Positions 4,056-64,000 of a stretch of DNA of 64,000 bases are shown piece after piece. The DNA is from a phage, in the sequence record PZ386970.1; one strand, given 5' to 3'. The notes beneath the pieces are model-generated. The model saw only the letters and a program-made list of their open reading frames with translations, was not told where the DNA came from and ran no database searches. How positions within the stretch are numbered: position 1 is the first letter of the stretch; each line of letters starts with the position of its first letter. Position numbers and translations under genes: made by a program.

Positions 4056-4175
4056 AACAATCCTTAGGAGATATAAACAGATTCTGATTCAACAATACCT
4101 TTAACCGGATTAGACAGGCTAAGTTGGTAGTGCTCAGATTTATGACCATTCTCGATAGTAATGAGATAGCTCTCA

Positions 4176-4412: not shown

Positions 4413-4471
4413 TTCGATTTCCTCATTGTGTTGGTAGAGTTATAGTATCACAACTCCACCATGTTGTAAAC

Positions 4472-4747: not shown

Positions 4748-4754
4748 AATTACC

Positions 4755-4979: not shown

Positions 4980-5150
4980 TTAACCATTCAATTGCCTGGT
5001 CGACGTTATCAAATATACCACCGTCCAAACGTTCTTCATGCTCATAGTCCAGCACATCAATACCGAACTGTCCATTTACTAAAGGCCAGGCTACAAACAA
5101 ATATTCTTTATGCTGTTCGATGGCCTCAATCACTTCATATAATCGTTTCA

Positions 5151-5151
<1 letters not shown>
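4960..5151 (-). CDS. hypothetical protein
   Basis: 63-aa ORF from track, immediately upstream of pseT in the same operon. Confidence 0.4.
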
Positions 5152-6237
<1,086 letters not shown>

Positions 6238-6238
<1 letters not shown>

Positions 6239-6537
6239 TATTTTATTCCTAAGAAAGTTTCAAGAATACGAATGTTGAGTTCGCGCCGGTCTTTATTAAT
6301 TTCAGCAACGTTTTTATTAATTGACATACTTCTAACGTTTGAAGAAATAAATTTAATCATATGACTTTTGAGTTGTTGCAAATCCAACCCTTTTTCTTTA
6401 GCAGCTTTACGAAGAGCTTTACCTGCTTCATCTAGTGCCTTTGCTGCATCTTTGTCATAATTGCCAAGTGACATTCCACGACAGATATCAATATACTCAT
6501 CAGACCGTTTGATGTAATTCTCTAGTAATGTTTTCAT
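6238..6537 (-). CDS. hypothetical protein
   Basis: 99-aa ORF from track. Confidence 0.5.
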
Positions 6538-6594
6538 TTAGATTTCCTCAATTATCCATAGGAGCATTATACTCTGCTCCTGAGAGTTTGTAAA

Positions 6595-6819
6595 CTATTT
6601 TACTAAAGATTCAATATACTCGTGAAGAGCTTTAGTCGCTACTGCCCACTTATTCTGATATTCATTTTTCAGATTAGCACGAGACTGAACTAACAATCGG
6701 TCATTAGTCGGAGGCAAAGATTCTAATCGTTGAATCTGGCGCCCATAAATCATAGCCGCCATTTCAGATTCATAGATAAGCCCTTTAATGTATTCATGCT
6801 GTTCTTTAGTCATTGGCAT
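6595..6819 (-). CDS. hypothetical protein
   Basis: 74-aa ORF from track. Confidence 0.45.
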   Translation of the reverse strand: MPMTKEQHEYIKGLIYESEMAAMIYGRQIQRLESLPPTNDRLLVQSRANLKNEYQNKWAVATKALHEYIESLVK

Positions 6820-7100
6820 TTTTCCTCTTTTAAACCACTACGATAATAACATATCATAGTCTTCTGGTCATGTACATATCTTTTTACGTCGTTTAACCAG
6901 ATACGAAATTCTTGAGAGTCTTCAAATGGCATTCCAACCCATGGATTACCATCAATAACCTTTACTTGCCATTTCTGGTTATATTCAACAATAGATTCTG
7001 GCCACGGCGGATGTAAAGTTTCTTTAGGGCTTAAGGGCACATCCTGGGCACACCCAGCCAAAATACCAATAGATAATACAACTGCGGTTAATTTAATCAT
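6810..7100 (-). CDS. outer-membrane spanin (o-spanin) lipoprotein, T4 pseT.2-like
   Basis: 96-aa ORF with signal peptide and lipobox (ILAGC); 4-nt overlap with upstream i-spanin; position between pseT and alc as for T4 spanins. Confidence 0.6.
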   Translation of the reverse strand: MIKLTAVVLSIGILAGCAQDVPLSPKETLHPPWPESIVEYNQKWQVKVIDGNPWVGMPFEDSQEFRIWLNDVKRYVHDQKTMICYYRSGLKEEKCQ

Positions 7101-7453
7101 TCTGAGAGCTTCCTGAGGTCTTCTGCAAAGGAATCGAAGGACTTGTTGATTTGTTTTTCGACCAATCCTGGTTTACTTGCCACCACGTTCTTCTTCTTCG
7201 AATCCTTACGGAGCTTTTCATTTTCGGCCTTAAGTTGGTCAACTAAAACACGATTCTTATATGTCATTTCTTCTATAGACTGATATTGAATCTTGAAGTC
7301 GTCTAATACTTTAGCATTGTTTTTAGCAGTCTCTTTAACAGAAGCCAATTCAGTATTCAGCGAATCGACTTTATGGTTCAGAAATGCTATTGTTACAGTA
7401 GCAACAACCGCAAAAGCTGCCACTACAATATATGATGCATTTACTTTAAGCAT
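7097..7453 (-). CDS. inner-membrane spanin (i-spanin), T4 pseT.3-like
   Basis: 118-aa ORF: N-terminal transmembrane segment (YIVVAAFAVVATVTIAF) followed by predicted coiled-coil periplasmic domain. Confidence 0.6.
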   Translation of the reverse strand: MLKVNASYIVVAAFAVVATVTIAFLNHKVDSLNTELASVKETAKNNAKVLDDFKIQYQSIEEMTYKNRVLVDQLKAENEKLRKDSKKKNVVASKPGLVEKQINKSFDSFAEDLRKLSE

Positions 7454-7941
7454 GTTTGAATAATCTCAATGATTTCGTCTCGGGATAATCCATTGATAAG
7501 AACTGTTTTAGGCCCATCAGTTTGGATTTTGTACGATTCAAACAATACACACAACTCTTCTGCTGTATGATACGGGCTTGAAATTCCGAGACGGTTGAAT
7601 TTGTCGGTAAGAGGGTCGCAAATGATGTAGAATTTTATACCTGCGATATGTACGTTTGGTTGACTAATATTAATGAACACATTAGCGTCATATTTAGTCA
7701 AATTGTTTTGAAGAAATTCTACCATAGCATTAACTGCTTCTGGCATTGCTTCGCGTTTCTCTTCAGCGTATCGGGTGGAATATTCCTTTTGCTTTAACTT
7801 CTTTTTAGCATTTTTCGCTAGAGTAGTACGAAGGTCCGTAAGATAACCAACTGCACGGCCTTTCTTAAAGACCCGGATTCCATCTGTAGAATCACCAAAT
7901 GCTGCCACAACCATATCGTTAGTAATCAATTGCATATTCAT
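7441..7941 (-). CDS. alc: Alc, host transcription termination/unfolding protein
   Basis: 166-aa ORF at the T4 alc position between the spanins and rnlA; length matches T4 Alc (167 aa). Confidence 0.6.
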   Translation of the reverse strand: MNMQLITNDMVVAAFGDSTDGIRVFKKGRAVGYLTDLRTTLAKNAKKKLKQKEYSTRYAEEKREAMPEAVNAMVEFLQNNLTKYDANVFINISQPNVHIAGIKFYIICDPLTDKFNRLGISSPYHTAEELCVLFESYKIQTDGPKTVLINGLSRDEIIEIIQTCLK

Positions 7942-19011: not shown

Positions 19012-22000
19012 ATGGCCGACATCAAACGTAAGTTCAGAGCCGAAGACGGTCTGGACGCCGGTGGCGACAAGATTGTTAACGTAGCATTAGCCGACCGTAC
19101 AGTAGGTACTGATGGCGTAAACGTTGACTTCCTGGTACAAGAAAACACCGTTCAAGTATATGATTCTACGCGTGGATATAACAAAGGATTTGTTGTTCTT
19201 TATGACAACCGTTTATATCAAGCAATAAATGATATCGTGTCTCCTTCAGGGGCATTTAACCTTTTACAATGGCGTGCAGTTCGTACTGATGCACAATGGA
19301 TAACTGTCGCTTCTGGGGCTTATCAACTTTCTTCAGGTGAATCGATTTCGGTTAACACTGGTGCCGGCAATGATATGGTTTTCACGTTGCCAAATGCGCC
19401 GGTTGATGGCGATACTGTTGTTTTGGCTGATATTGGTGGAAGAACCGGGACAGTTAAAGTACAGATTAACGCGTCTGTACAGAGTATTTTAAACTTTAGA
19501 GGTGAACAGGTTCGTACGGTTTTAATGACGCGACCACGTTCACAACTATTGTTTGTGTTTAGTAATCGTTTGTGGCAGATGTATATTACCGATTATGGTA
19601 AAGAATCAATCACTGTTACACCTGCGACACCATATCAAGCACAAGCAAATGATTTTATCGTTCGTCGTTTTACTAGTGCAGCACCAATCAACATTACACT
19701 TCCACGTAATGCTAACAATGGTGATATAATCAGCCTAGTCGATTTAGATAGATTAAACCCACTGTATCATACATTTGTTAAAACATTTGATGATACAACG
19801 TCTATTGGTGAAGTCGGGACTCATATTGCCGAAGGCAGAAATGACTCTGACGCGTTTTTTGTTTTTGATGCTGCAAATAGTTTATGGCGTATATGGGAAG
19901 GCGACCAGAAATCGCGTCTTCGTATTATCCGTGCGGATTCAAATATTCGTCCAAATGAAGAAGTTCTTATTTTTGGCACAAATAACATTACTACAGGAAC
20001 TATTAATCTTACGCTGCCTTCCGGAATTTTGAGTGGTGACACTGTTAAAATTTCAATGAACTACATGCGTAAAGGCCAAACGGTAAAAATTAAAGCTGCC
20101 GAAGGTGATACAATTGCTTCCACTGTTGCATTGCTTCAGTTCCCTAAACGTTCTGAATATCCACCTGATGCTCAATGGGTTTCTGTTACTGAACTAGAAT
20201 TCAATGGCACTACTTCATATGTTCCTGTATTAGAATTAGCGTATATCGAAGACACCGTTGCTGGTACACGTTATTGGGTTGTTCAACAAAACGTCCCAAC
20301 CGTAGAACGTGTTGATGCTGGAACTGATGCTACACGAGCTCGTTTAGGTGTTATTGCTCTTGCTACTCAAGCGCAAGCAAATGTTGATTTAGAGAATACT
20401 CCTGCTAAAGAAGTTGCTATTACTCCTGAAACGTTGGCAAATCGTACAGCAACTGAAGCTCGACGTGGTATCGCTAAAATTGCTACAACAGCACAAGTTA
20501 ACCAGAATTCCACAGCAACATTTGTGGACGATACTATTGTTACGCCTAAAAAACTAAATGAGCGTACAGCAACTGAAACTCGCCGTGGTCTTGCTGAAAT
20601 TGCTACTCAGGCTGAAACCGATGCAGGTCTTGATGACACAACGATTATTACGCCTAAGAAATTACAGGCACGTCAGGGTTCTGAAACACTATCTGGTATA
20701 GTTAAATATGTATCAACTACTTCTGCTACTCCTGCTGAAACTCGTGGGACTGCAGGCACTAACGTTTATAATAAAACCGTAAATAATTTAACTATTTCTC
20801 CTAAAGCCCTTGACCAATATAAAGCAACTTATGCTCAACAAGGTGCAGTAATTTTAGCTGTTGATAGTGAAGTAATTGCTGGACAATCTCAGTCTGGATA
20901 CTCTCACGCTGTAGTAACTCCTGAAACACTACATAAGAAAACTTCTACTGATGGACGTATTGGTTTAATTGAAATTGCTACGCAAGCAGAAACTAATGCT
21001 GGGACTGATTATACACGTGCAGTAACGCCTAAGACGTTAAATGATAGGAAAGCTACGGAAGGATTATCCGGCATAGCCGAAATTGCTACGCAAGTTGAAT
21101 TTGATACTGGAACTGATGATACTCGTATCTCGACTCCACTGAAAATTAAAACTCATTTTGATTCTTCTGACCGTACCAGTGTTAATTCTGATTCCGGACT
21201 TATTGAAGAAGGAACCTTGTGGAACCATTATACTCTTGATATTTCTAAAGCAAATGAAACACAACGTGGTACACTTCGCGTAGCGACTCAGGCAGAATCT
21301 AATGCAGGAACTTTAGATGATGTTCTTATTACTCCTAAAAAGCTTTTAGGGACTAAGTCCACTGAAACGTCTGAAGGCGTAATTAAGGTTGCTACTCAGG
21401 CTGAAACTGTAACAGGAACTTCTGCTAATACTGCTGTATCTCCTAAGAATTTAAAATGGATTGTCCAAAACGAACCAACATGGGCTGCTACTACAGCAAT
21501 TCGCGGATTCGTTAAAACTTCATCCGGTTCAATTACATTCGTTGGCAACGATACTCAAGGTAGTACCCAGGACCTGAATCTTTACGAGAAAAATAGTTAT
21601 GCTATTTCTCCATATGAATTAAACCGTGTATTAGCAAATTATTTGCCATTAAAAGCAAAAGCTGCTGACGCAAATTTATTAGATGGACTAGATTCATCTC
21701 AGTTCATTCGTAGAGATATTGCACAGACGGTTAATGGTTCACTAACCTTAACCCAACAAACTAACCTGAGTGCCCCTCTTGTATCAACTAGTACTGCTAC
21801 GTTTGGTGGTTCGGTATCTGCCAATAGTACATTGACTATTTCTAATACGGGAACAGCTACTCGTCTGATTTTTGAGAAAGGACCTCAAACTGGAACTAAC
21901 CCAGCGCAGACGATGAGTATCAGAGTTTGGGGAAATCAGTTTGGTGGCGGTTCAGATACAACACGTTCTACTGTATTTGAAGTTGGTGATGAAACGTCTA

Positions 22001-22887
22001 ATCATTTTTATTCTCAACGTAATAAAGATGGGAATATAGCGTTTAGCATTAATGGCACTGTAATGCCAATAAACATTAATGCTTCCGGTTTGATGAATGT
22101 GAATGGTGTTGCAACATTCGGTCGTTCAGTTACAGCCAATGGTGAATTCATTAGTAAGTCTGCAAATGCTTTCAGAGCAATTAGTGGTGATTACGGATTC
22201 TTTATTCGTAATGATGCTGCTAATACCTATTTTATGCTTACTGCATCAGGTGATCAGACTGGCGGATTTAATGGATTACGTCCTTTAGCTATTAATAATG
22301 CATCCGGCCAAGTAACGATTGGTGAAGGCTTAATCATTGCCAAAGGTGCTACTATAAATTCAGGTGGTTTAACTGTTAACTCGAGAATTCGTTCTCAGGG
22401 TTCTAAAACTGCTGATTTATACACTCGTGCTCCTACTGCTGATACAGTCGGATTCTGGTCAATTGATATTAACGATTCAGCCACTTATAACCAGTTCCCA
22501 GGTTATTTTAAAATGGTTGAAAAAACTAATGAAGTGACTGGGCTTCCATACTTAGAACGTGGCGAAGAAGTTAAATCTCCTGGTACTTTGACTCAATTTG
22601 GTAATACGCTTGATTCTCTTTACCAAGATTGGATTACTTATCCAACAACTCCAGAAGCACGTACAACCCGTTGGACACGTACATGGCAGAAAACTAAAAA
22701 TTCTTGGTCAAGTTTTGTTCAGGTATTTGATGGTGGAAACCCTCCTCAACCTTCTGATATTGGTGCTTTACCTTCTGATAATGCAACAATCGGAAACTTG
22801 ACAATAAGGGATTTCTTAAGGATTGGTAATGTCCGCATTATTCCAGACCCTGTGAATAAGTCTGTTAAATTCGAGTGGATTGAATAA
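19012..22887 (+). CDS. 34: gp34 long tail fibre proximal subunit
   Basis: 1291-aa ORF (T4 gp34 1289 aa); repetitive beta-structure motifs; first gene of the 34-38 late block. Confidence 0.9.
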   Translation: MADIKRKFRAEDGLDAGGDKIVNVALADRTVGTDGVNVDFLVQENTVQVYDSTRGYNKGFVVLYDNRLYQAINDIVSPSGAFNLLQWRAVRTDAQWITVASGAYQLSSGESISVNTGAGNDMVFTLPNAPVDGDTVVLADIGGRTGTVKVQINASVQSILNFRGEQVRTVLMTRPRSQLLFVFSNRLWQMYITDYGKESITVTPATPYQAQANDFIVRRFTSAAPINITLPRNANNGDIISLVDLDRLNPLYHTFVKTFDDTTSIGEVGTHIAEGRNDSDAFFVFDAANSLWRIWEGDQKSRLRIIRADSNIRPNEEVLIFGTNNITTGTINLTLPSGILSGDTVKISMNYMRKGQTVKIKAAEGDTIASTVALLQFPKRSEYPPDAQWVSVTELEFNGTTSYVPVLELAYIEDTVAGTRYWVVQQNVPTVERVDAGTDATRARLGVIALATQAQANVDLENTPAKEVAITPETLANRTATEARRGIAKIATTAQVNQNSTATFVDDTIVTPKKLNERTATETRRGLAEIATQAETDAGLDDTTIITPKKLQARQGSETLSGIVKYVSTTSATPAETRGTAGTNVYNKTVNNLTISPKALDQYKATYAQQGAVILAVDSEVIAGQSQSGYSHAVVTPETLHKKTSTDGRIGLIEIATQAETNAGTDYTRAVTPKTLNDRKATEGLSGIAEIATQVEFDTGTDDTRISTPLKIKTHFDSSDRTSVNSDSGLIEEGTLWNHYTLDISKANETQRGTLRVATQAESNAGTLDDVLITPKKLLGTKSTETSEGVIKVATQAETVTGTSANTAVSPKNLKWIVQNEPTWAATTAIRGFVKTSSGSITFVGNDTQGSTQDLNLYEKNSYAISPYELNRVLANYLPLKAKAADANLLDGLDSSQFIRRDIAQTVNGSLTLTQQTNLSAPLVSTSTATFGGSVSANSTLTISNTGTATRLIFEKGPQTGTNPAQTMSIRVWGNQFGGGSDTTRSTVFEVGDETSNHFYSQRNKDGNIAFSINGTVMPININASGLMNVNGVATFGRSVTANGEFISKSANAFRAISGDYGFFIRNDAANTYFMLTASGDQTGGFNGLRPLAINNASGQVTIGEGLIIAKGATINSGGLTVNSRIRSQGSKTADLYTRAPTADTVGFWSIDINDSATYNQFPGYFKMVEKTNEVTGLPYLERGEEVKSPGTLTQFGNTLDSLYQDWITYPTTPEARTTRWTRTWQKTKNSWSSFVQVFDGGNPPQPSDIGALPSDNATIGNLTIRDFLRIGNVRIIPDPVNKSVKFEWIE

Positions 22888-22895
22888 GAGGTATT

Positions 22896-24023
22896 ATGGA
22901 AAAATTTATGGCTAAGTTTGGACAAGGATACGTCCAAACGCCATTTTTATCGGAAAGCAATTCAGTACGATTTAAATTAAGCATAGCGGGCTCTTGTCCG
23001 CTATCAACATCTCCTACTTATATTAAGTTCCAAGATAATCCACTCGGGTCCCAGGTTTTTTCCGTTGGATTAAACGTTCGTGTAATAAATCCTACAACAG
23101 GTGCAGTAGTTGAATCTAAGTCATATAATTTCTCTACTGAAAACGACGCCACGTCAAGTGCATTTGTTACTTACATGGACACATATGCTTCAAATTTTAT
23201 ATTTGCTCTTGTTACTAACGCTAAAACAAACTTTCCTCCTGAAGTTCTTGCATGGTTTACTAAAGCTGGAAGTTCTGTTATTCCATTAGCTCAACAAGTT
23301 TTAAATATAGTGGACATTTCTTATTCGGCATTTTATATTTCTGGTAAGAATGCTATAGCACTAGAACATATTAAGTATAGTAATAAGAAAACTTCAACTG
23401 ACTATAGTACACCACTTGATGTTGTGTACGACACTATCAATGATATCGGTGCTACCGGCTTCCCTAGTCGTACGTATGAATCGACAGACACATTTTTATC
23501 TGCTGTTGGGGGTACTAATAATGAAATTAAAAGGATGCCTACAACATCCCTTATTACACCTCTCGCCGGGTATAAATTGAAGCCTGGAGATTTCCTTTAT
23601 ACGAAATTCCAACTAACAGCAGATGCTGATTTGTTAGCACAAGGGACGACACGACTTTCTATTCGTTTCTTTAAATCTCCTTCTACTTCACCTATTTCAT
23701 TTAAGGATATAAACTTTGATGGGAACGCAGGTGAATGGAAGATATATGAAGACTACATAGAAATTCCTGCTGGTGCTGACGGGTTCACGATTTATTGTTA
23801 TCGTACAGCTCCAGTCGGGCAAGGTGGATTAAGAAACGTTATATTCACTGAAGTATCATGTAATGGAAGCGTTTCAAAACCTGCCGAGTTTGGTATAAAT
23901 GGTATTCGTGTAAATTATGTTTCAGAATCTTTAAGTGCCCCAGACATAATGACATTACCTACTCAATCTTCAACCGATACTGGTAAGGTATTTGGACAAG
24001 AATTTAAAGAAGCATCAGAATAA
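22896..24023 (+). CDS. 35: gp35 long tail fibre hinge connector
   Basis: 375-aa ORF immediately after 34. Confidence 0.85.
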   Translation: MEKFMAKFGQGYVQTPFLSESNSVRFKLSIAGSCPLSTSPTYIKFQDNPLGSQVFSVGLNVRVINPTTGAVVESKSYNFSTENDATSSAFVTYMDTYASNFIFALVTNAKTNFPPEVLAWFTKAGSSVIPLAQQVLNIVDISYSAFYISGKNAIALEHIKYSNKKTSTDYSTPLDVVYDTINDIGATGFPSRTYESTDTFLSAVGGTNNEIKRMPTTSLITPLAGYKLKPGDFLYTKFQLTADADLLAQGTTRLSIRFFKSPSTSPISFKDINFDGNAGEWKIYEDYIEIPAGADGFTIYCYRTAPVGQGGLRNVIFTEVSCNGSVSKPAEFGINGIRVNYVSESLSAPDIMTLPTQSSTDTGKVFGQEFKEASE

Positions 24024-24028
24024 ATTTA

Positions 24029-24053
24029 GGGAGACTTCGGTCTCCCATTTTTG
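24029..24053 (+). terminator. intrinsic terminator hairpin after gene 35 (GGGAGAC-UUCG-GUCUCCC + U-tract)
   Basis: perfect hairpin followed by ATTTTTG; directly upstream of gene 36 late promoter. Confidence 0.6.
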
Positions 24054-24061
24054 TATAAATA
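24054..24061 (+). promoter_or_regulatory. T4 late promoter (TATAAATA) for genes 36-37
   Basis: exact TATAAATA ~25 nt upstream of gene 36 ATG. Confidence 0.7.
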
Positions 24062-24085
24062 TGGTATACATATAAGGAGACAACT

Positions 24086-24745
24086 ATGGCCGATTTAAAA
24101 GCTGGTAGTACAACTGGTGGTGCCGTTATATGGCATCAAGGTAATTTCCCTTTAATGCCAGCAGGTGATGACGTCCTGTATAAAACGTTTAAACTCTATT
24201 CAGAATATAATAAACCACAAGCTGTTGATAACGATTTCGTTTCTAAAGCAAATGGTGGTACTTATTTAAATAAGGTAATTTTTAATAAAGGAATGACTGT
24301 CCCTGGCGCAGGATCAGGTGACAATGGTATTTTTGCTGGTCCTGGTGATAATGCCACGTATGATACTACAAATATGGATATTGTTTCGTGGTACGGTATT
24401 GGTTTTAAATCATCACAAGGTTCAGCAGCCCGAACTGTTGTAATTAATACACGTAATGGTGATATTAGCACAAAAGGTGTTGTATCAGCATCAGGTCAAG
24501 TAAGAAGTGATGCGGCTGCTCCTATAGCAGCAAATGACCTTACTCGTAAAGATTATGTTGATGGACGAATAAATATTGTTACGGATAACGCAAATTCCCG
24601 TGTATTGCGTAAAGGCGATACCATGACTGGTACTTTAACAGCACCAAACTTTTTCTCACAGAATCCGGCCTCCGAGGCTAATCATGTTCCTCGTTTCGAC
24701 CAGATTGTAATTAAAGATTCTGTTCAAGATTTCGGCTATTATTAA
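24086..24745 (+). CDS. 36: gp36 long tail fibre distal connector
   Basis: 219-aa ORF (T4 gp36 221 aa). Confidence 0.85.
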
Positions 24746-24753
24746 GAGGACTT

Positions 24754-27700
24754 ATGGCTACATTAAAACAGATACAATTTAAAAGAAGCAAAGTGGCAGG
24801 AGTTAATCCTACTGCAGCACAATTAGCCGAAGGCGAATTAGCGATAAACTTAAAAGACCGAACTCTTTTTACTAAAGATGACCTCGGTAATATTATTAGC
24901 CTAGGCTTTGCTAAGGGCGGGGATATTAACGGTAATGTAACTCAAACCGGCGATTATTTACAAAACGGCACATATAATCTTAATGGAAACCAGTTTGTTT
25001 ATGCAGGAAAGTATATTGAATTCTTGCCAAAAACTGCTGGAAACGGCGCCTGGGCTAACCAACATCTGAATAAAGCCCCTATCTTTACAGATTTGAGTTC
25101 AACTACTTCAACTTCTGAATATCATCCGCTGATTAAACAACGCTATAAAGATGGAACTTTTTCTGTCGGTACATTAGTAAATGAAGGAAGTTTTAAGATT
25201 CATTATATCAATGAATCTGGGGATTCGAAATATTGGACTTTTAATCGAAACGGTAATTTCATCGTAGATTCTGGTAGTATTGAAGTTCGTGCTGGTAATA
25301 TTTCCGCTTCTGGAAATATTAATTCAGCTACTGGTGTAATTTCTGCACCTCGTGTTATCACAAAAAATATTAATTTAAGTACAAAGACTTTTATTCCTAA
25401 TAACGACGCTGGGTATGATTTAGTTTCTTTGCCTACTTGGATTTATAATCCGCCGGCAGATGGTTCTGACCGTAATACAAATGGTCTTAACTACATCCGT
25501 AAGATGAGGGCTTCAAATACTTCTAGTATTTTCCATGAAATAGTTGATTGTCGTTCAGGAAAGCCACAAGAAATTTCTTGGTGGACAGGCGTAGGTCCAG
25601 AATCTTTCCAATGGGCGTTTGATACTTCTGGGCGTATTACCGCAGGTAAATCTATTTCAGTAGGTCTTCCTGATAACGGTTCAAATGGACGTTATCCTTT
25701 AGATTCTGCCATTTCTATTGGTATTGCAATTGGTGATAACGACACCGGTATTAAATGGGTCCGCGACGGTGTTATTGATTTCATGGCTAACGGTATTTCA
25801 TCCGCTACCATTTTGAATAACGGTATTAACAGCACCAAGAAATTGATGGTTGGTTATAGCCGAGATTCAGGTTCTACTTGGGATTTCCCAAATAACAACC
25901 AAGCAATGTTTACTGCTCGTACTGATATTGATGGCAATAATAACGGTGATGGTCAGACTCATATCGGTTATAACAGCAATTCTAAAATGTATCACTATTT
26001 CCGTGGCACGGGTCGTATGGCTGTTGGTATGGCAGAAGGTTTAATTGTTGAGCCTGGCATTTTAGATATTAAAACCGGTTCAAATTCGTTAAATTTGCGT
26101 GCTGATGGTACCATCGCTTCGGTTCAAACGTTAAAACTTAATAATGGATTATATTTTAATGGTGATGGAACTAATGCTTCTCTAGTTTTTAAAGCAGCTT
26201 CAGGTATTGATGGTACTAAGCAAATAATGTGGGAAGGTGGTACTCGTGCTGGGCAGAATAAAAGCTACGTAACTGTTAAAGCATGGGGTAATTCATTTAA
26301 CGCATCCGGCGATCGTAATCGTGAAACTGTATTTGAAGTTAGTGACGGGCAAGGATATTATTTTTATTCACAGCGTGTGGCTCCAAGTGGCTCTGAAACT
26401 ACTGGGCCTGTTGTAACCCAGTTCAATGGACAAGTTAATGCTAGAGGAAGCTTAATAACCGACGGAAGTCTTAGAGTTAACGGATTAAGCACTCTAGTTG
26501 GCAACGTTACAATGAATAATGGATTGTTTGTTCAAGGTGGTGCCTCAATTACCGGACAGGTTAAAATTGGTGGAACAGCTGATGCATTAAGAATTTGGAA
26601 TGCTGAATACGGGGCTATTTTCCGCCGCTCGGAAGCATCATTATATATTATTCCGACTCCTAAAGATGCTGGTGAAAGCGGTGGAATAAGTAATCTTAGA
26701 CCATTGATAATAGAACTGAACACTGGCACAGTTAAAATGTCGCATGATGTTCATTTAGGAGATTCTGGATCTGGTACAGGATTATTACAAGTAAGTAATA
26801 GTCTTAAAACTATTAAAATGATATGCCCAGTAACTATTAACGAACGTAATGCAGCGCTTACTCTAGATTCTCCTTCATCTTCTTCTGCTAATTATTTACA
26901 GGGTTCTAAAGCTGGAACTAGATCGTGGTATGTTGGTCTTGGTGGCTCAGGAAATGATTTATCACTTTATAGTCAATCTTATGGCCATGGTATTGTTATA
27001 AGCGATAATTTCGTGTCAATTACTAAACCATTAAAAGTTGGTAATGCTCAATTCGGTACCGATGGTAACATCACTGGCGGTACTGGTAATTTTGCTAACT
27101 TGAATACCACAATAAATAACCTTAAGACGGATATTGTGTCGAGTTACCCAATTGGTGCTCCGATTCCTTGGCCTACTGATACACCTCCTGAAGGTTATGC
27201 CATAATGGAAGGCCAGACGTTTGATGTTGGCTTGTATCCTAAGTTAGCTGCGGTGTATCCTTCTGGCGCTCTGCCTGATATGCGTGGTCAGACGATTAAA
27301 GGTAAACCATCTGGGCGTGCTGTATTGAGTACAGAAGCAGACGGTGTTAAGTCACATAGTCATAGTGCAAGTGCATCAAGCACAGATTTGGGTACTAAGA
27401 CCACTTCTAGTTTTGATTACGGTAGCAAAACGACTTCAAGCTTTGATTATGGTACTAAGACCAGTAATACCACTGGCAACCACAACCATACAGTGAGTGG
27501 TAATACTAGTTCAGCAGGAGCTCACCAACACGCTCGTTCAGGCCCTCAAATGCAAGGCGGCATACCAACTAGCATATTCTATGATGGATACAATAGCGCG
27601 GGTCCAAACGGCAACGCTAAAATCACTGGAACCGTGAGTGGTGCTACTGCATCGTCGAATATGGCCAAAACTTCTTCAGATGGTGCCCACACCCACAGTT

Positions 27701-27900
27701 GGTCAGGAACCACTAGTGCTACGGGTAACCATGCTCATACCGTGGGTATTGGTGCTCATACCCATTCGGTAGGTATTGGTGCTCATACTCATACTGTTGC
27801 AATTGGTTCCCATGGACATACAATAACTGTAAATGCCACAGGAAATACAGAAAACACAGTTAAAAACGTTGCTTTTAACTATATCGTTCGTTTAGCATAA
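24754..27900 (+). CDS. 37: gp37 long tail fibre distal subunit (receptor-binding)
   Basis: 1048-aa ORF; C-terminal His-x-His boxes ([34 protein letters not shown]) and terminal [11 protein letters not shown] as in T4 gp37. Confidence 0.9.
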
Positions 27901-27906
27901 GGAGAA

Positions 27907-27925
27907 GGGACTTCTGTCCCTTTTT
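27907..27925 (+). terminator. hairpin + U-tract after gene 37
   Basis: GGGAC-TTCT-GTCCC followed by TTTTT. Confidence 0.5.
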
Positions 27926-27930
27926 ATAAT

Positions 27931-28482
27931 ATGAAACTCTATCACTATTATTTTGACACTAAAGAATTTTACAAAGAAGAAAATTATAAACCATTAAAAG
28001 GCGTAGGATTTCCGGCTCATTCGACACCAAAAAAACCTTTAGACCCTAAAGAAGGCTATGCTGTTATATTTGACGAACGCGAACAAGAATGGGTATATGT
28101 TGAAGACCATCGCGGAAAAACAGTATGGACTTATGATAAACAAAAAATTGTTATTGACACTCCAGGTGCTCTTCAAAATGTTACTACAGAAGAACCTGGT
28201 GAATTTGACATTTGGACCGACGACGGGTGGAAGGAAGATGAAGCATATAAACGTGTAGTTCAACGTGATAAGAAAATTCATGAACTCTATAAATTATTCA
28301 GTGTTTTAAGTTCTCTTATTGACGCAGAGGTTGCTAATAGAGAAGAAAAACGAAAATTTAAAGAGCTCAAAAAATTCTTTGCCCTTTTAGAAAAACATGA
28401 ACATCTTGGCGGCGAATTCCCTAAATTCCCTGACCTTGAAAACAAATCTATTATCAAAGCGATTATAAATATCTTTAAGTAA
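27931..28482 (+). CDS. 38: gp38 tail fibre assembly chaperone (T4-type)
   Basis: 183-aa ORF MKLYHYYFDTKEFYKEENYKP... equal in length and N-terminus to T4 gp38. Confidence 0.85.
   Translation: MKLYHYYFDTKEFYKEENYKPLKGVGFPAHSTPKKPLDPKEGYAVIFDEREQEWVYVEDHRGKTVWTYDKQKIVIDTPGALQNVTTEEPGEFDIWTDDGWKEDEAYKRVVQRDKKIHELYKLFSVLSSLIDAEVANREEKRKFKELKKFFALLEKHEHLGGEFPKFPDLENKSIIKAIINIFK
28464..28471 (+). promoter_or_regulatory. T4 late promoter (TATAAATA) for holin t
   Basis: exact TATAAATA followed by AAGGAGG RBS and ATG at 28492. Confidence 0.7.
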
Positions 28483-39713: not shown

Positions 39714-40814
39714 TTACGCTGTGAAGATTTTATCCCACATCGCAACAACTGCATCTCGATTATACTTCTTCCATACTGCTTCAGCACGTTTAACTCGAGC
39801 TTCGTATGTGTCAGTGAATTCTAATACAGCTTTTGTGTAAAGCGCAACTACTTCTTTCTTAGGAGTAGAAGAATCAATTTCTACACGCACAGTATCTGGG
39901 TCATATTCGAATGTCGCATGAGGATAATCCTTAAAAACTAACTGGATTACAGGGACACCTTTAGAGATGGCTTCAATAGAACTATTCTCTACCGTACCTG
40001 TGTCAGGACACGTATTAATAAGTGCTTTAGCTGTTTTAAGACGTTCCATAATTTCACTGTGTGGAGCATCAATAATAACAGGATATTTAGCTGGTGGTGC
40101 CCATTTACTAGGACAGTATCCTGCACCATTTTCGCCTAGTGCTTTAATCGCTTCAAGAGCAACATCAGTACGACGCATTTTAGTGTCATAACGTTGTGCA
40201 CTAATAATCAGATCAGTCGCCGGAAGAACTTCAGGTTTCTCATTCAAACAAATAACCGGATAATCTTCGGCTTCAAACAACGGATTTGCTCGCCAATAAT
40301 CATAATCAATTTTGTCAGTCAGTCCCGAAGTCATATAACAATATTTACGTTCAAATTCACGGAAGGCTTTAGTAGGAGCATAACTCTTACCACCATTCTT
40401 ATGAATTTGAATAGTCTGGTCCCAAATTTGAACAATGCCACGAGATACCGGCTCAAATGGTGTTGCCATAAAATTCTTATGAACTTTAGAGAGACCTGCG
40501 TCTTTAATTGCCTGAACGGTTAGTTTGGTCGGTTCCATTGTAACAACGAAATCGTACTCATTAATGCCGGCTAGTTCAACAATCTTACGAGCCATAGTAT
40601 AACTCATACCTAGACTGAATTTAGTCAGATGACCAACAGGATGATGATTAACCTTCCAATCACCAAATGTGTCATTATCAAAGCCGATATAATCAATATC
40701 AGCACCGATGGACACAAGATATTTCAACACATTTAAATGTACTGCTTCAAGACCACCTTGTACACGTTCTGGGTTAAATGGGACTGCGCGAGATGGGATA
40801 AACATAACTTTCAT
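39714..40814 (-). CDS. putative GT-B-fold glycosyltransferase (candidate DNA hydroxymethylcytosine sugar transferase)
   Basis: 366-aa ORF; N-terminus MKVMFIPSRAVPFNPERVQGGLEAV...IGADIDYIG and C-terminal block TGTVENSSIEAISKGVPVI resemble GT-B donor-binding motifs; not similar to T4 alpha- or beta-gt as recalled; sits where T4 carries gene 60. Confidence 0.5.
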   Translation of the reverse strand: MKVMFIPSRAVPFNPERVQGGLEAVHLNVLKYLVSIGADIDYIGFDNDTFGDWKVNHHPVGHLTKFSLGMSYTMARKIVELAGINEYDFVVTMEPTKLTVQAIKDAGLSKVHKNFMATPFEPVSRGIVQIWDQTIQIHKNGGKSYAPTKAFREFERKYCYMTSGLTDKIDYDYWRANPLFEAEDYPVICLNEKPEVLPATDLIISAQRYDTKMRRTDVALEAIKALGENGAGYCPSKWAPPAKYPVIIDAPHSEIMERLKTAKALINTCPDTGTVENSSIEAISKGVPVIQLVFKDYPHATFEYDPDTVRVEIDSSTPKKEVVALYTKAVLEFTDTYEARVKRAEAVWKKYNRDAVVAMWDKIFTA

Positions 40815-40837: not shown

Positions 40838-40858
40838 ATGAAGCTCCCGAAGGAGCTT
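40838..40858 (-). terminator. hairpin (AAGCUCC-UUCG-GGAGCUU) downstream of HNH endonuclease gene
   Basis: perfect stem with tetraloop followed by AT-rich tract. Confidence 0.45.
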
Positions 40859-41669
40859 AGGACATCCAACACATTTTATAACCTTTGCAGGTTCTGTTAG
40901 GATTATTTAATGCTTTCAATATATTAGAAGACCCTATACCTAAATACTCCCTTAATTCATAAAGATAGTTAAAATCAATAGTTTCACCTGTTTTTACACT
41001 TGTGATTCTTATAGGCCTTCTTTCATATTTAGATTTATACAACTCTCTAGTCTTAGCTTTAGTTTCTTCTGACCTAGGAGTGTATGGTTTAAATCCTTTT
41101 GTTTTAAATGTTTCCATTCTTGATTTAGTTATTTTATCCTGGTGTTCTTTTGTTTTTACAGGTGCTTTTCGCCCATTCTCCCAAGATAACTTGTTGGCCT
41201 GTATTATTTTATCTATTGCTTCTTGCGTATGAGTTTTACCATAAAATGGATTTAATTCGCCTATACGTTGTGAAGCAATATGTGACATTAATTCTCTTGT
41301 TGCTTTAGTATGTTTTTTACCTTTAAATGGGTTGCCATTTTTAGCAATCCATTCTTTCATAAATCTAGAGTGCTCTTTAGAGAATTCTTGTTTAAGCCAA
41401 TCATAATCTCTAGAATTTCTAGCTCCCATGTAAAAAGCTCTAATAGCCATAAGCGTAGAACGGTTCTTATGAATTTTATAAAGCAATAAATGGGCGATAA
41501 AATGCTCTCTAGGGGTCATTTTAACTAGATTTGATTTAGCATTACTCCCGCCCATAGATTTAGGCAAAATATGGTGAGTTTCAGTATAATTAGGAATAGT
41601 GCTGCGGTTTTTAGCCGCAGCGATAAGTTTATCATAAATTTTACGATAATTCATTATCCTAGCATCCAA
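40857..41669 (-). CDS. HNH-family homing endonuclease with NUMOD3 repeats (MobA-like position)
   Basis: 270-aa ORF; HNH motif ETHHILPKSMGGSNAKSNLVKMTPREHFIAH; repeated NUMOD3-like units NPFKGKKHTKATRELM / NPFYGKTHTQEAIDKI; probable start at internal ATG overlapping gene 39 stop. Confidence 0.8.
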   Translation of the reverse strand: MDARIMNYRKIYDKLIAAAKNRSTIPNYTETHHILPKSMGGSNAKSNLVKMTPREHFIAHLLLYKIHKNRSTLMAIRAFYMGARNSRDYDWLKQEFSKEHSRFMKEWIAKNGNPFKGKKHTKATRELMSHIASQRIGELNPFYGKTHTQEAIDKIIQANKLSWENGRKAPVKTKEHQDKITKSRMETFKTKGFKPYTPRSEETKAKTRELYKSKYERRPIRITSVKTGETIDFNYLYELREYLGIGSSNILKALNNPNRTCKGYKMCWMS

Positions 41670-53259: not shown

Positions 53260-53781
53260 TTAGTAACCATTATCCTGACGTTCAAAGTTGTGTTGGTTTT
53301 TCAGATAATACAGTTTGAAGATTTCTTCAGCAGAAAGTCCTAGACCTTGGAACATATTTAGAACGAAATGCAGAATATCAATCATTTCGAATTTAATTTC
53401 AAGCTGGTCTTCAGGAGACAGTTCATCGATACGACGATTACGATATTCAGCATGCTGTGCCTTCCACGGCTTCCATACACTGCTGGCGGCTTTTTCACCA
53501 TTGCTCATACCACCAAGTGAAGTCAGCAGTTCACGGAATTCATCATCAATATAATCTTTCTGATTACGCAGCCAATCAACAACATCACCAGCAGTAGCCA
53601 ATTCATCAGGATGTTTGTTATGTTCAGGCTTGTCATTTGCCAGACGAACCTGTAAAGATTTCTGCATATCAAGCATTACCTGCAGTGGGTCTTTATCTTC
53701 GTGAATCAGAGCATTAAAATAAGCTTCTTCTGCTTTATCAACACCAGAAATAAGTTGTGAACATTCGTTAAAGTGTGCCAT
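53260..53781 (-). CDS. 56: dCTP pyrophosphatase (dCTPase/dUTPase, MazG-like)
   Basis: track ORF 53260..53796 trimmed to MAHFNEC... start with AAAGGA RBS; sequence closely matches T4 gp56. Confidence 0.85.
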   Translation of the reverse strand: MAHFNECSQLISGVDKAEEAYFNALIHEDKDPLQVMLDMQKSLQVRLANDKPEHNKHPDELATAGDVVDWLRNQKDYIDDEFRELLTSLGGMSNGEKAASSVWKPWKAQHAEYRNRRIDELSPEDQLEIKFEMIDILHFVLNMFQGLGLSAEEIFKLYYLKNQHNFERQDNGY

Positions 53782-61324: not shown

Positions 61325-61422
61325 TGTATTTTTCCATAGGCATCATTATATTTTACTCATGTTTAAAAGATAAGATGATTATATACTAAGGGTTATACAG
61401 CATTTAAAACTTTAAATGGCTC

Positions 61423-61971
61423 TTAACGAGCCCATTTAATGATTTCTGTAATCAAATAATTACGTTCGCTTGCATTAAATCCTATAACTTTGTTAGCACC
61501 ATCATGATTAAGTAATTGATACGTTTGGATTTTGTTATGAATTGCAAACTCTTCAAAATATGAAATGACTGTATTAAAACCGAATGAAGACAAAGTAATA
61601 AGGTCGTCTTCAAAACTTTCAGTCATTTCGTTACGTGTTAAAATAATTGTGAACACATCATGGTTTTGGCAAAGACGAACATAATCCTGTTCATAAACGT
61701 CAAGAACCGAGTCCACATCTTGTCGAATACGTCCATAAACCCAGTTACTAATATATCCACGGTCTAACAGATAAATCTTAGTAGGGTCTAAATAATTCAA
61801 CATCGTTTCGAAACAACCAACTTCATTTCGAGACTTAACATCGAAACGCCCATCAACTGTTCGTTTAGGGAAATCAATCTTTACATATCTTTCACTAATT
61901 TCCATTATGTCATTAATGAAAGTTGTTTTACCAGCATTATCTGGGCCGTCTACTAAAATAATTTTAGCCAT
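61423..61971 (-). CDS. P-loop nucleoside/nucleotide kinase-like protein
   Basis: 182-aa ORF with N-terminal Walker A (ILVDGPDNAGKTT); occupies part of the locus where T4 encodes beta-glucosyltransferase. Confidence 0.5.
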   Translation of the reverse strand: MAKIILVDGPDNAGKTTFINDIMEISERYVKIDFPKRTVDGRFDVKSRNEVGCFETMLNYLDPTKIYLLDRGYISNWVYGRIRQDVDSVLDVYEQDYVRLCQNHDVFTIILTRNEMTESFEDDLITLSSFGFNTVISYFEEFAIHNKIQTYQLLNHDGANKVIGFNASERNYLITEIIKWAR

Positions 61972-61972
61972 T

Positions 61973-62872
61973 TTATTCCTCGATTACGACATCTTCGTAT
62001 TTAGGTATATTATACGGTGAAGAAATTAAAGCATTAAAGTAGATGAACTCACCAAGACCTGGATGGAATACTTCTTCAGGATTTTCGAAATATTGAATTT
62101 TCGGACGTCCTTTAAGAATTTGATAGTACTCAGTTTTAGTTGGATTAAAAATTCGAATCAGCGCTTCTTCAGGATACTTATTTCTGTCGAAACTATTATT
62201 TGGATCAGTTATATAAAGCGGTTGACCTAATTGAATTGCGCATTCAACAACTTGTTCAAAACGATAGCATGGGTCACTAATTCGAAATGGATGAAAAATA
62301 CCATCTAGATGAATAGGAGCCAAATCACCTACAAGACGCTGCATGATGGAAGGACGTATAACTTTCTGAGTTACGATAATCTTATTACCATCTGCACCTG
62401 CGTTAACCAGCACTTCTTTTTGACGTTCATTCAACACAGTAGTTTGAAGTGAACGATTAACTGACAACATATCGGTTTTTAAGAATTCGTCAATATAAAA
62501 ACGTGGTTTATTAGGGTCTGCCGTGATATTGAAATTGAATTCTACATCAAAAGCGCCGTCATATCCAGTGATATCTGTTATTAGAAAATCACAATCATAA
62601 TAAGCAATTAATGAATCAACCACAAATTCATTTTCAGACCAGAAATATTTACGAGTGTTATACGCGTTATCTTTATACCATAATGGAACAAACTTAAATT
62701 CCGGGAAAAGACGTTCACATTCTTTAATATCAGATGCATTACGTGGATATGTAATCACATCACCCGGATTAGCACGGTGCAAATGAAGTTGGAAGTTGCC
62801 ATCCTTAAGGATAGCATACTGTCCAGTTTCATAAGACCGCATACTCAAGATTGGTACGCGGAAAATAGCCAT
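61973..62872 (-). CDS. hypothetical protein (non-T4 gene at beta-gt locus)
   Basis: 299-aa ORF; no similarity to T4 beta-gt as recalled. Confidence 0.5.
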   Translation of the reverse strand: MAIFRVPILSMRSYETGQYAILKDGNFQLHLHRANPGDVITYPRNASDIKECERLFPEFKFVPLWYKDNAYNTRKYFWSENEFVVDSLIAYYDCDFLITDITGYDGAFDVEFNFNITADPNKPRFYIDEFLKTDMLSVNRSLQTTVLNERQKEVLVNAGADGNKIIVTQKVIRPSIMQRLVGDLAPIHLDGIFHPFRISDPCYRFEQVVECAIQLGQPLYITDPNNSFDRNKYPEEALIRIFNPTKTEYYQILKGRPKIQYFENPEEVFHPGLGEFIYFNALISSPYNIPKYEDVVIEE

Positions 62873-63588
62873 TAGTCAAGGAATCCTTTAACATAATCAA
62901 AATCACGTTCAAACACATGGGCACTTACCATGGTATGAGTATAATCACCAACTTCTACACCACATTCGTTAGCGATATAATGAAGTAATTTTCCTTGGAG
63001 ATAAAAATCCAACTGCATAACAACAGCACAATTCTGAGAACGCATATGACAGTGGGTATAAAGCTTACCATCACGAATATAATAAGTCACTGAGTCAGTA
63101 CATGGATATTCAAGCGTTTCGTCCGAATCAAGCAAAGCCTGATCAGAACTTTCTAGAATTTGGAACACAACTCTTCGGGAGTTAGGCTTCTCTTTAAGTT
63201 CTTTTAGAAGAGCTGGTAATTGGGCCGCAATTCGAGGACCATAGAAAGTGTTGAAGTTCGCAGGCAAAGCATCTGATTTTGGTTTAGAAATAAATTTAGC
63301 GACATTAGGATATGCCTTAAACGCTTCTTCTGCATCAGTACCACCAGAAATCATAAACTTCCAGAAATCTTCGGCATATTCATAAGAGATGCGGTTAATA
63401 CGTGGGTCGGTCATTTTGAATGATGATGGAGTGTCAACAACTACTGTCATGGACCCAATTTCATTACAACGTCCAATACGAGAATCAGTTACGAATTCCG
63501 GGTTTTCTAAAATTTCACGATTGACTGCTTTAAATGCGGCTTGAAAATCTGCTGCTTTGATATATTTCATTGTGTTATGTTTTCCCAT
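62872..63588 (-). CDS. thymidylate-synthase-fold pyrimidine hydroxymethylase, divergent gene 42 homologue
   Basis: 238-aa ORF; catalytic Cys block EYPCTDSVTYYIRD and downstream Asp (QLDFY) align with T4 dCMP hydroxymethylase Cys148/Asp179, but overall similarity to T4 gp42 is only ~30% by eye. Confidence 0.6.
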   Translation of the reverse strand: MGKHNTMKYIKAADFQAAFKAVNREILENPEFVTDSRIGRCNEIGSMTVVVDTPSSFKMTDPRINRISYEYAEDFWKFMISGGTDAEEAFKAYPNVAKFISKPKSDALPANFNTFYGPRIAAQLPALLKELKEKPNSRRVVFQILESSDQALLDSDETLEYPCTDSVTYYIRDGKLYTHCHMRSQNCAVVMQLDFYLQGKLLHYIANECGVEVGDYTHTMVSAHVFERDFDYVKGFLD

Positions 63589-63630
63589 GTTTACCTCAAT
63601 ACAATTTATTATATACTCAATTCGTAAAGC

Positions 63631-63870
63631 TTATTTGAATTTCTTGGCAATGTTGATATAACGTAAAGCTTCAGAATCTATACTTCCAAGAACACTATGA
63701 AGGAATGCATCAGTGTAGTATTCCAATTGAACAGGTTCTTTAATCACTTTAGCCGCTTTGGTTTCAAACAGGCCCATCAGGGCCTTTTTAAGAATTTGTT
63801 CGTTAGTGTTCAGTTTTATAGTCAAAATCTCTTCATTAAGTTTATAATTAAAAGTTTTTCTAGAAATCAT
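63631..63870 (-). CDS. hypothetical protein
   Basis: 79-aa ORF from track. Confidence 0.4.
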   Translation of the reverse strand: MISRKTFNYKLNEEILTIKLNTNEQILKKALMGLFETKAAKVIKEPVQLEYYTDAFLHSVLGSIDSEALRYINIAKKFK

Positions 63871-63931
63871 TCCGGGTACCTCAAAGCGTCATCAGAGTTA
63901 GTTATATCAATAATAGATATAGAGTTTTCTG

Positions 63932-64000
63932 CTAACCCGTTTTTAGATAATTGACGTTTATAATACCTTTCACAATATGTACACGTTGACCCACAGATTT
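63932..64000 (-). CDS. 3' end of a gene extending beyond the window (partial)
   Basis: open minus-strand frame running into the window edge, ending ...HIVKGIINVNYLKTG*; identity unknown. Confidence 0.25.
   Translation of the reverse strand, partial: KSVGQRVHIVKGIINVNYLKTG

Follow-up and report, generated by a model that had tools for sequence, protein, structure and literature searches.

We have found that three tightly packed genes on the minus strand of the window, i.e. the whole stretch of 64,000 nucleotides of phage DNA that was analysed, very probably form the base-modifying core of a DNA hypermodification system, that of arabinosyl-5-hydroxycytosine (ara-5hoC) in the Mosigvirus phages (RB69, HY126, Bas46/47); we put the probability of this reading at roughly 0.9. 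The genes are located between uvsX and the sugar-nucleotide genes, and encode a 238-aa thymidylate synthase (TS) homolog, a 299-aa protein and a 182-aa P-loop kinase; the functions that we propose for these enzymes have been transferred from near-identical orthologs.

Layout and phage background of the locus

The three open reading frames that the first-pass annotation had read in this region, of 238, 299 and 182 aa, are confirmed, all on the minus strand; profile and fold searches of their products have returned the TS family (PF00303), the GT-B fold and the thymidylate kinase (Tmk) fold, respectively. As the three genes are kept in about 345 phage genomes and their fold predictions are of high confidence, we regard them as real genes and not as chance reading frames. 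The features of the locus, together with two further genes of the window that are connected with it, are listed below:

61411-61439, minus strand: terminator-like hairpin that overlaps the stop codon of the kinase gene and would end the three-gene unit
61423-61971, minus strand: thymidylate-kinase-fold P-loop nucleotide kinase, 182 aa, ortholog of RB69 gp45
61973-62872, minus strand: compact GT-B glycosyltransferase, predicted arabinosyltransferase 1, 299 aa, the intact form of RB69 gp47+gp46
62872-63588, minus strand: TS homolog, 5-hydroxy-dCMP (5hodCMP) synthase as judged from its ortholog RB69 gp48, 238 aa, occupying the T4 gene 42 slot
63608-63630, minus strand: middle-promoter-like motif read from the sequence, GCTTTA (MotA-box-like), 11 nt, TATAAT, located 20 nt upstream of the TS start codon
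63631-63870, minus strand: 79-aa ORF, RB69 gp49 ortholog (90% identical), between the gp50 homolog and the TS gene
63867-64000, minus strand: C-terminal 43 codons of the RB69 gp50 homolog (40/43 identical to RB69 gp50 residues 347-389), the gene being truncated at the window end
39714-40814, minus strand: second GT-B glycosyltransferase, RB69 gp3 ortholog (99.2% identical), predicted arabinosyltransferase 2
53260-53781, minus strand: gp56 dCTPase/dUTPase, 97.1% identical to RB69 gp56 over 173 aa, for dCMP supply and dCTP exclusion

The TS, glycosyltransferase and kinase genes form one unit, which is headed by the middle-promoter-like motif, is joined by one TAATG overlap and one 1-nt gap, and is closed by the terminal hairpin. 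The motif resembles the T4 middle-promoter consensus and is presumably a promoter; the hairpin has a computed RNA folding energy of -11.5 kcal/mol (z -3.0 versus shuffled sequences) and a weak U-tract. A generic sigma-70 promoter scan has returned 12 sites versus 12.7 expected, i.e. no enrichment, and a terminator consensus scan has called none. In the record of phage SA79RD, a feature labelled 'terminator' is annotated below the kinase gene.

By sequence identity, the window is a segment of a Mosigvirus (RB69/PhAPEC2-like) genome: the locus is 98.6% nucleotide-identical to Mosigvirus genomes, and collinearity with RB69, at 94-97% identity, extends over the window. The flanks are also those of RB69, with uvsX on one side and the gp49 and gp50 homologs on the other; a Pfam search of the 79-aa gp49 ortholog has returned no match, while the gp50 homolog is U32-peptidase-like, a 'sugar or heterocycle reductase'. 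The remaining UDP-arabinose genes would be located past the window end, judging from the gene context in Bas46 and RB69.

One close counterpart is the Afh cluster of phage HY126 (He et al., Nat Chem Biol 2026; PDB 9IQC, 9IR2, 9IQU and 9IQZ). Both this cluster and the RB69 genes gp45, gp46:47 and gp48 (Lee et al., NAR 2026, PMC13326640) correspond to the locus gene by gene and in the same order; the proteins are 97.8-99.6% identical to their RB69 counterparts, and the solved HY126 structures are near-identical in sequence. The differences from RB69 are trivial: the RB69 reference record splits into two ORFs the 299-aa gene that is intact here, and a homing-endonuclease-like insertion beside the second glycosyltransferase gene and a DAHP synthase gene are found in the window and are absent from RB69.

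The thymidylate synthase homolog and the modified base

The TS homolog is identical to RB69 gp48 at 237 of 238 residues (99.6%) and to the solved structures PDB 9IQC, 9IR2 and 9IQU at 235 of 238, and it matches the Pfam thymidylate synthase family (PF00303) with an E-value of 2.4e-15 (56.9 bits versus a cutoff of 24.3). The published residue signature is complete: Cys163, Glu160, Asn186 (corresponding to D169N in E. coli) and Asp194 (N177D). Cys163 and Asp194 are the catalytic cysteine and the cytosine-specifying aspartate that the first-pass annotation had recognised; the former occupies an invariant column and is aligned with the cysteine of T4 gp42, while the latter specifies dCMP and not dUMP; Glu160 is the acidic residue at the L143 position (L143E). 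The column of Cys163 is presumably that of Cys146 of E. coli ThyA; in the same alignment, Asn186, within 'RSQN', stands opposite the aspartate of 'RSCD' in ThyA and of 'RSND' in T4 gp42.

The substitution D169N has been proposed as the diagnostic residue of this activity, asparagine being present at that position in every tested 5hodCMP synthase (Lee et al., PMC13326640). According to the same study, RB69 gp48 converts dCMP to 5-hydroxy-dCMP with O2 and a flavin and is no hydroxymethylase, the data comprising formation of 5hodC in vivo, incorporation of 18O2 and a bound FMN-like flavin; flavin/O2-dependent 5-hydroxy-dCMP formation by the HY126 enzyme is summarised there as well (PMC13326640). 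With its function carried over from RB69 gp48, from which it differs by one residue, we assign the 238-aa TS homolog as a flavin/O2-dependent 5hodCMP synthase. [quoted passage not shown]

The DNA of RB69, NP and Bas46/47 contains mono- and di-arabinosyl-5hoC, and in RB69 DNA an ether link straight to C5 has been established by NMR and MS. The suspicion of the first-pass annotation, that a divergent TS-fold enzyme produces a different modified base within a non-T4 hypermodification locus, is thus borne out by an enzyme that is near-identical to one that forms 5hodCMP, and by relatives that carry arabinosyl-5-hydroxycytosine and not glucosyl-hmC.

The glycosyltransferase, the kinase and the timing of arabinosylation

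The 299-aa protein has no Pfam match and no PDB sequence match, and its comparison with T4 beta-gt has detected no sequence similarity (best E-value 3.6). Its predicted structure comprises the two Rossmann domains of the GT-B fold, and its nearest structural neighbours are members of the GT4 family; R12, K23, R33 and R74 are invariant residues of its N-terminal domain. GT4 enzymes are retaining, which would fit the alpha linkage of the base-proximal arabinose. Since the protein is 99% identical to RB69 gp46:47 over both fragments and occupies the same position, flanked by the kinase and TS genes, we predict that it is a GT4-like arabinosyltransferase 1 of the RB69 gp46:47 / DLP3 gp79 group. 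The first-pass annotation had correctly found it dissimilar in sequence to beta-gt, but it is not the unrelated unknown that had been supposed: it is predicted to be a functional analogue of beta-gt that shares its GT-B fold class and likewise glycosylates a DNA base.

The 182-aa protein carries the Walker-A motif GPDNAGKT at its start, in line with its earlier description as kinase-like, and has a P-loop NMP-kinase fold that is nearest to Tmk, with genuine thymidylate kinases as its top structural matches. A PDB sequence search has found no Tmk match at E ≤ 1, and the Pfam Tmk family (PF02223) is matched by the P-loop alone, at 12.3 bits versus a cutoff of 27. The two genes adjacent to the TS gene, for which a sugar- or nucleotide-modifying pathway had been suggested, are an ortholog of the predicted arabinosyltransferase 1 and a thymidylate-kinase-like gene.

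In the second step of the proposed pathway, 5-hydroxy-dCMP would be converted by phosphorylation into its triphosphate, which would be built into DNA instead of dCTP, while gp56 would destroy the dCTP; the first phosphorylation could be carried out by a dNMP kinase of the T4 gp1 type. In the third step, the 299-aa glycosyltransferase is predicted to use UDP-Araf as the donor of the first, alpha-linked arabinofuranose, which it would attach to the 5-hydroxyl of 5hoC, and the gp3-like glycosyltransferase at 39714-40814 would add the second arabinose; the latter is the ortholog of the HY126 glycosyltransferase, matching PDB 9IQZ/9IR0 ('phage HY126 glycosyltransferase') with an E-value of 2.6e-248. 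The need for the operon kinase in this sequence is less evident, as RB69 gp159, which is homologous to gp1, is already able to turn 5hodCMP into 5hodCDP (Lee et al., PMC13326640); in the papers covered, assays of RB69 gp45 and its homologs have not been found. Most likely, the Tmk-like protein acts on 5hodCMP, or on a compound derived from it, as a dedicated or additional kinase.

One such derivative would arise if the first arabinose were added before replication: the 299-aa glycosyltransferase would arabinosylate free 5hodCMP, the Tmk-like kinase would phosphorylate ara-5hodCMP, which the gp1-type kinase could not handle, and DNA itself would be the acceptor of the later sugars only. We consider this order of events unlikely, although it survives better than the other alternatives. 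The experiments of Lee et al. do not, by their own account, separate nucleotide-level from post-replicative first arabinosylation, and the DLP3 homolog gp79 alone was inactive in vitro on 5hoC-DNA with UDP-Ara (PMC13326640). The coupling of the three genes in one unit is also in keeping with this order, as is the co-occurrence of the triad in about 345 genomes, which, like RB69, are expected to possess a gp1-type dNMP kinase in any case. Moreover, the triad persists in distant phages: in a 216-kb metagenomic phage, it adjoins an AfhE-like NTP-transferase/APH enzyme, and in Acinetobacter phage DLP3 (gp78-gp80) and Rhizobium phage RL38J1 (gp214-216), the same kinase, glycosyltransferase and TS (D169N) genes feed glycosylated 5-hydroxycytosine; a distant TS homolog has asparagine at the D169 position too, within 'RSNN'. 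The gene order of the triad, on the other hand, is not constant between genera. The members of the arabinosyltransferase 1 family are all acidic (median pI 5.2, net charge -10.5), whereas T4 beta-gt has a pI of 9.05; this argument is weak, however, because mild acidity (pI 6.1) is also found in T4 alpha-GT, which genuinely acts on DNA. To our knowledge, all characterised T-even phage DNA glycosylation is post-replicative, which counts against addition of the sugar to the nucleotide. Furthermore, the TS homolog and the gp1-type kinase suffice for unglycosylated 5hoC to appear in E. coli DNA, so 5hodCTP is made and can be polymerised (Lee et al., PMC13326640). If the pre-replicative order were true, a glycosylated dCTP analogue would be incorporated by the phage polymerase, which would be the first nucleotide-level glycosylation of a DNA base in phage.

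It is still less probable that the Tmk-like protein serves the general supply of nucleotides as an ordinary dTMP kinase, which would lie outside the modification pathway and be placed here by chance of genome organisation. Its structural matches and the annotation 'thymidylate kinase' in many records speak for such a role, but its score is far under the Pfam Tmk threshold, the annotation of RB69 already assigns dTMP to a gp1-type kinase, and the T4 interval from uvsX to gene 42 has no such kinase gene. The distribution of the kinase also follows that of the glycosyltransferase nearly one-to-one across genera (344 versus 349 phage records, with matching genus counts), and their linkage is kept in the distant phage lineage.

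Comparison with the T4 system and significance of the locus

In T4, gene 42 and beta-gt occupy the same genomic slot, between uvsX and the DNA polymerase gene; we have checked the order uvsX / segA / beta-gt / 42 in NC_000866. The two systems also share their logic, i.e. a TS-fold enzyme that acts on dCMP, followed by GT-B transfer of a sugar from a UDP-sugar, and T4 gp42 and the TS homolog of the window have in common the catalytic cysteine, the acidic residue 143 and Asp177. The identity between the two enzymes, however, is 25% over 218 aa, and T4 gp42 has Asp169 where the TS homolog has asparagine, which sets the latter apart from the gp42-type hydroxymethylases. The strong divergence relative to the neighbours that the first-pass annotation had noticed is therefore real, with uvsX at 68%, gp40 at 83% and gp41 at 86% identity to T4, although uvsX falls slightly under the 70% that had been estimated for most of them; the identity to gp42 is far below the 60% that the first-pass annotation had named as speaking against its reading, and the 299-aa protein is no beta-gt ortholog. 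When T4 gp42, alpha-gt and beta-gt were sought across the RB69 genome, gp42 matched no other RB69 gene, and no alpha-gt or beta-gt homolog was found.

The chemistry differs in the published systems: T4 uses methylene-THF and water to form 5-CH2OH, whereas the ara-5hoC system uses O2 and flavin to form 5-OH (PMC13326640). Unlike T4, the ara-5hoC phages attach arabinofuranose through an ether at C5, must make their own UDP-arabinose and have the extra Tmk-like kinase. The best non-phage near-full-length match of the TS homolog is MilA, the mildiomycin CMP 5-hydroxymethylase (PDB 5B6D/5JNH; residues 14-237, E-value about 2e-11), which is likewise a cytosine-specific TS homolog, but hydroxymethylates CMP with folate and is no hydroxylase (PMC13326640). 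Among the more distant phages, the kinase and glycosyltransferase homologs of the DLP type are about 46% identical to those of the window; DLP3 adds a third arabinose via extra glycosyltransferases, while RL38J1 uses galactose and glucose and not arabinose (Lee et al., PMC13326640).

That the 238-aa protein is a divergent gp42-type dCMP hydroxymethylase and the DNA carries arabinosyl-5-hydroxymethylcytosine, as RB69 was originally interpreted (Thomas et al. 2018) and as the residues shared with gp42 and the GenBank labels 'dCMP hydroxymethylase' or 'thymidylate synthase' would have it, is highly improbable in view of the asparagine at the D169 position, the 5hodC with 18O from O2 that was obtained with RB69 gp48 (PMC13326640), the direct C5 ether link in RB69 DNA, and an independent paper that has called the hmC assignment erroneous; for RB69 itself, this reading is already refuted by the published chemistry.

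The ara-5hoC system is already known, having been published in 2025-2026 in RB69-like phages, in whose DNA 5-hydroxycytosine decorated with arabinose takes the place of cytosine, and the value of the window is one of annotation: the public labels of these genes are still 'thymidylate synthase', 'dCMP hydroxymethylase', 'thymidylate kinase' and 'hypothetical protein', while the D169N signature leads to a correct prediction of the base chemistry. In this system, the TS fold, otherwise used for one-carbon transfer from folate, has been adapted to hydroxylation with flavin and O2, and 5-hydroxycytosine serves as a new sugar attachment point on phage DNA; the modified DNA of this phage would accordingly be expected to resist restriction enzymes and CRISPR, the resulting DNA of such phages evading restriction, CRISPR and glycosylase defences.

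The three-gene unit and its surroundings

The first-pass annotation had described three ORFs at 61423-63588, and this observation has been confirmed, with all three found at its exact coordinates, on the minus strand:

62872-63588, minus strand: TS homolog, 238-aa ORF of the thymidylate synthase family
61973-62872, minus strand: glycosyltransferase (GT) gene, 299-aa ORF
61423-61971, minus strand: kinase gene, 182-aa ORF

The three genes form a compact unit: the TS homolog's stop codon overlaps the start codon of the GT gene (TAATG), and a single base separates the GT gene from the kinase gene. The motif GCTTTA-11 nt-TATAAT, located 20 bases upstream of the TS homolog, resembles, by the T4 consensus, a MotA-dependent middle promoter; a hairpin spans the kinase stop codon (-11.5 kcal/mol, z -3.0), and a related record annotates a 'terminator' feature under the kinase gene. 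A second MotA-box-like motif, seen by eye (TGCTGTA, 12 nt, TATAAT; 61378-61402, minus strand), lies within the 98 nt that separate the kinase gene from uvsX and suggests that uvsX may have its own middle promoter. Directly upstream of the TS homolog, inside the modification cluster, lies a conserved 79-aa ORF (63631-63870, minus strand), 90% identical to RB69 gp49, for which no family match was found.

By megablast, 152 phage records cover at least 80% of the locus, the best at 98.6% identity; among the matches listed, the best are all RB69/PhAPEC2-type coliphages. The whole window is collinear with the Mosigvirus phage RB69 (131189-167560, then 1-26625), mostly at 94-97% identity. In RB69 and in Bas46, also classified in Mosigvirus, the order along transcription is DNA polymerase, arabinose-5-phosphate isomerase, bifunctional nucleotidyltransferase/kinase, phosphatase, U32-like protein, 79-aa ORF, TS homolog, 299-aa gene, kinase and uvsX; since the window breaks off within the U32-like gene, the sugar-nucleotide half of the cluster lies beyond it.

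Elsewhere in the window, the tail-fibre region (21807-28462, equivalent to RB69 genes 34-38) is 75-88% identical to RB69 or unaligned, far more divergent than the remainder, as is typical of host-range variation. Next to the dCMP deaminase gene (2482-3063) is one for a 330-aa class I DAHP synthase (3063-4055, minus strand; PF00793, E 4e-75), a shikimate-pathway or KDO8P-synthase-family enzyme unusual for a T4-like phage; megablast finds no RB69 match for this stretch of ~1.1 kb. A 270-aa HNH/NUMOD3 homing-endonuclease-like ORF (40857-41669, minus strand), inserted between topoisomerase gene 39 and the gene for the second arabinosyltransferase, is missing from RB69 at the same site.

A predicted 5-hydroxy-dCMP synthase

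The 238-aa protein had been described as a TS-fold enzyme far more diverged than its neighbours, and both points hold: it matches PF00303 (E 2.4e-15) and is 25% identical to T4 gp42, the dCMP hydroxymethylase, versus identities to the T4 counterparts of 68% for uvsX, 83% for gp40 and 86% for gp41. It is identical to RB69 gp48 at 237 of 238 residues, and to PDB entries 9IQC, 9IR2 and 9IQU at 235 of 238. RB69 DNA carries beta-D-Araf-(1-3)-alpha-D-Araf, joined by an ether bond straight to cytosine C5 (Lee et al., NAR 2026, PMC13326640; bioRxiv June 2025). Expression of gp48 with a phage dNMP kinase in E. coli yields 5-hydroxy-dC in DNA, 18O2 is the oxygen source, and gp48 purifies yellow with an FMN-like flavin (PMC13326640); for the homolog from phage HY126, a flavin-bound crystal structure and in vitro reconstitution come from He et al. 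(Nat Chem Biol 2026), as summarised in PMC13326640.

Relative to E. coli ThyA, the signature of Lee et al. comprises the retained catalytic C146, N177D, which confers dCMP specificity, an acidic residue at L143, and the diagnostic D169N, present in each enzyme that yielded 5hodC (PMC13326640). In our alignment with T4 gp42, RB69 gp48 and E. coli ThyA, the corresponding residues of the TS homolog are C163, D194, E160 and N186; the catalytic Cys and the cytosine-specifying Asp are thus kept, as first read, whereas T4 gp42 has Asp at the D169 position. Because of the near-identity to gp48 and the four signature residues, we assign the TS homolog, on sequence grounds, as a 5-hydroxy-dCMP synthase and not as a hydroxymethylase. 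Its extreme divergence from gp42 reflects a change of chemistry. In the complete RB69 genome, a T4 gp42 query matches the gp48 gene only, and no alpha-gt or beta-gt homologs were found.

The glycosyltransferases and the Tmk-like kinase

No sequence similarity of the 299-aa protein to T4 beta-gt was found, in line with the initial reading, nor any Pfam family or PDB sequence relative; its 138 homologs in a large protein collection are all unnamed and without Pfam domains. It corresponds to RB69 gp47 (residues 1-181, 98.9%) joined to gp46 (residues 184-299, 99.1%). Hundreds of related genomes share the intact ORF of the window; the RB69 reference record (NC_004928) has two ORFs instead, ORF046c and ORF047c, with the break near residue 182. 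This supports a frameshift or a sequencing error in NC_004928, the latter being what Lee et al. state (PMC13326640).

The AlphaFold2 model of the protein (48-sequence alignment) reaches pLDDT 94.7 and pTM 0.89. Its closest structural neighbours belong to GT4, a family of retaining enzymes, and a retaining GT4-like fold would fit the alpha-linked arabinose next to the base. We thus read the protein as a predicted functional analogue of beta-gt, located in the same genomic slot. Lee et al. predict arabinosyltransferase 1 for this family, from synteny and from the mono-arabinosylated phage Thanatos, which has this GT only; the DLP3 homolog alone is inactive on 5-hydroxycytosine (5hoC) DNA (PMC13326640). 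The predicted arabinosyltransferase 2 is encoded elsewhere:

39714-40814: second GT; 99% identity to RB69 gp3, and almost the same sequence as the solved HY126 enzyme 9IQZ

GPDNAGKT is present in the 182-aa protein, bearing out its description as a Walker-A kinase-like protein, and the identity to RB69 gp45 is 97.8%. The family has the invariant motifs GxDNxGKT, FPK, DRG..SN.VY, R113 and DDLI. The 182-aa protein itself scores far under the Pfam Tmk threshold and has no counterpart in the homologous interval of T4; no experiments on it were found in the accessible literature. By tblastn, the kinase occurs in 344 phage records and the GT in 349, with matching kinase/GT counts in Escherichia (177/177), Acinetobacter (57/57), Shigella (15/15), Proteus (7/7) and Yersinia (6/6). 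Because the counts match per genus and the module recurs in a distant metagenomic phage, the kinase appears tied to the modification pathway, not to general dTMP supply.

Order of steps, distribution and annotation

Near-identical orthologs of the TS homolog convert dCMP to 5ho-dCMP with O2 and flavin, and a gp1-type kinase can turn 5ho-dCMP into the diphosphate, both demonstrated (PMC13326640); mono- and di-arabinosyl-5hoC occur in virion DNA of RB69, Bas46/47 and NP. The 299-aa GT would add the first arabinose from UDP-Araf, and the Tmk-like kinase may phosphorylate 5ho-dCMP or its derivative. The data of Lee et al. do not distinguish a first sugar placed on the free nucleotide from one placed on DNA (PMC13326640). 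Placement on the nucleotide seems to us unlikely: it is hinted at by the tight TS-GT-kinase linkage, by the redundancy of the kinase with the gp1-type kinase and by the acidic GT (family median pI 5.2), but T4 alpha-GT is acidic too (pI 6.1), and unglycosylated 5hoC readily enters DNA (PMC13326640).

The distant module is located on a JGI metagenomic contig (3300028586, Ga0265798_10000068, 216.6 kb), from a distant, probably large phage:

1857-7607: AfhE-like bifunctional NTP-transferase/APH protein, 179-aa ORF, TS homolog, three small ORFs, 358-aa GT, Tmk-like kinase

Its TS homolog is 36% identical and has Asn at the position of D169; its kinase, directly after the GT homolog, is 29% identical (E 2e-19). 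Next come genes for a YAcAr-domain protein and for a dCMP deaminase. The module indicates that 5hoC glycosylation may reach well beyond the named Straboviridae.

Three groups working independently (2025-2026) have already described the arabinosyl-5hoC system, including its chemistry, its enzymology and crystal structures, in phages 98-99% identical to the window phage. GenBank labels for the three genes are inconsistent ('thymidylate synthase', 'dCMP hydroxymethylase', 'deoxycytidylate 5-hydroxymethyltransferase', 'thymidylate kinase', 'RNA polymerase binding protein' and, over the GT, 'cysteine desulfurase'), and none of the public records listed names the hydroxylase function. The value of the locus lies in the correction of such mislabelling, which is widespread, and in the parts that the kinase and the predicted first arabinosyltransferase play.
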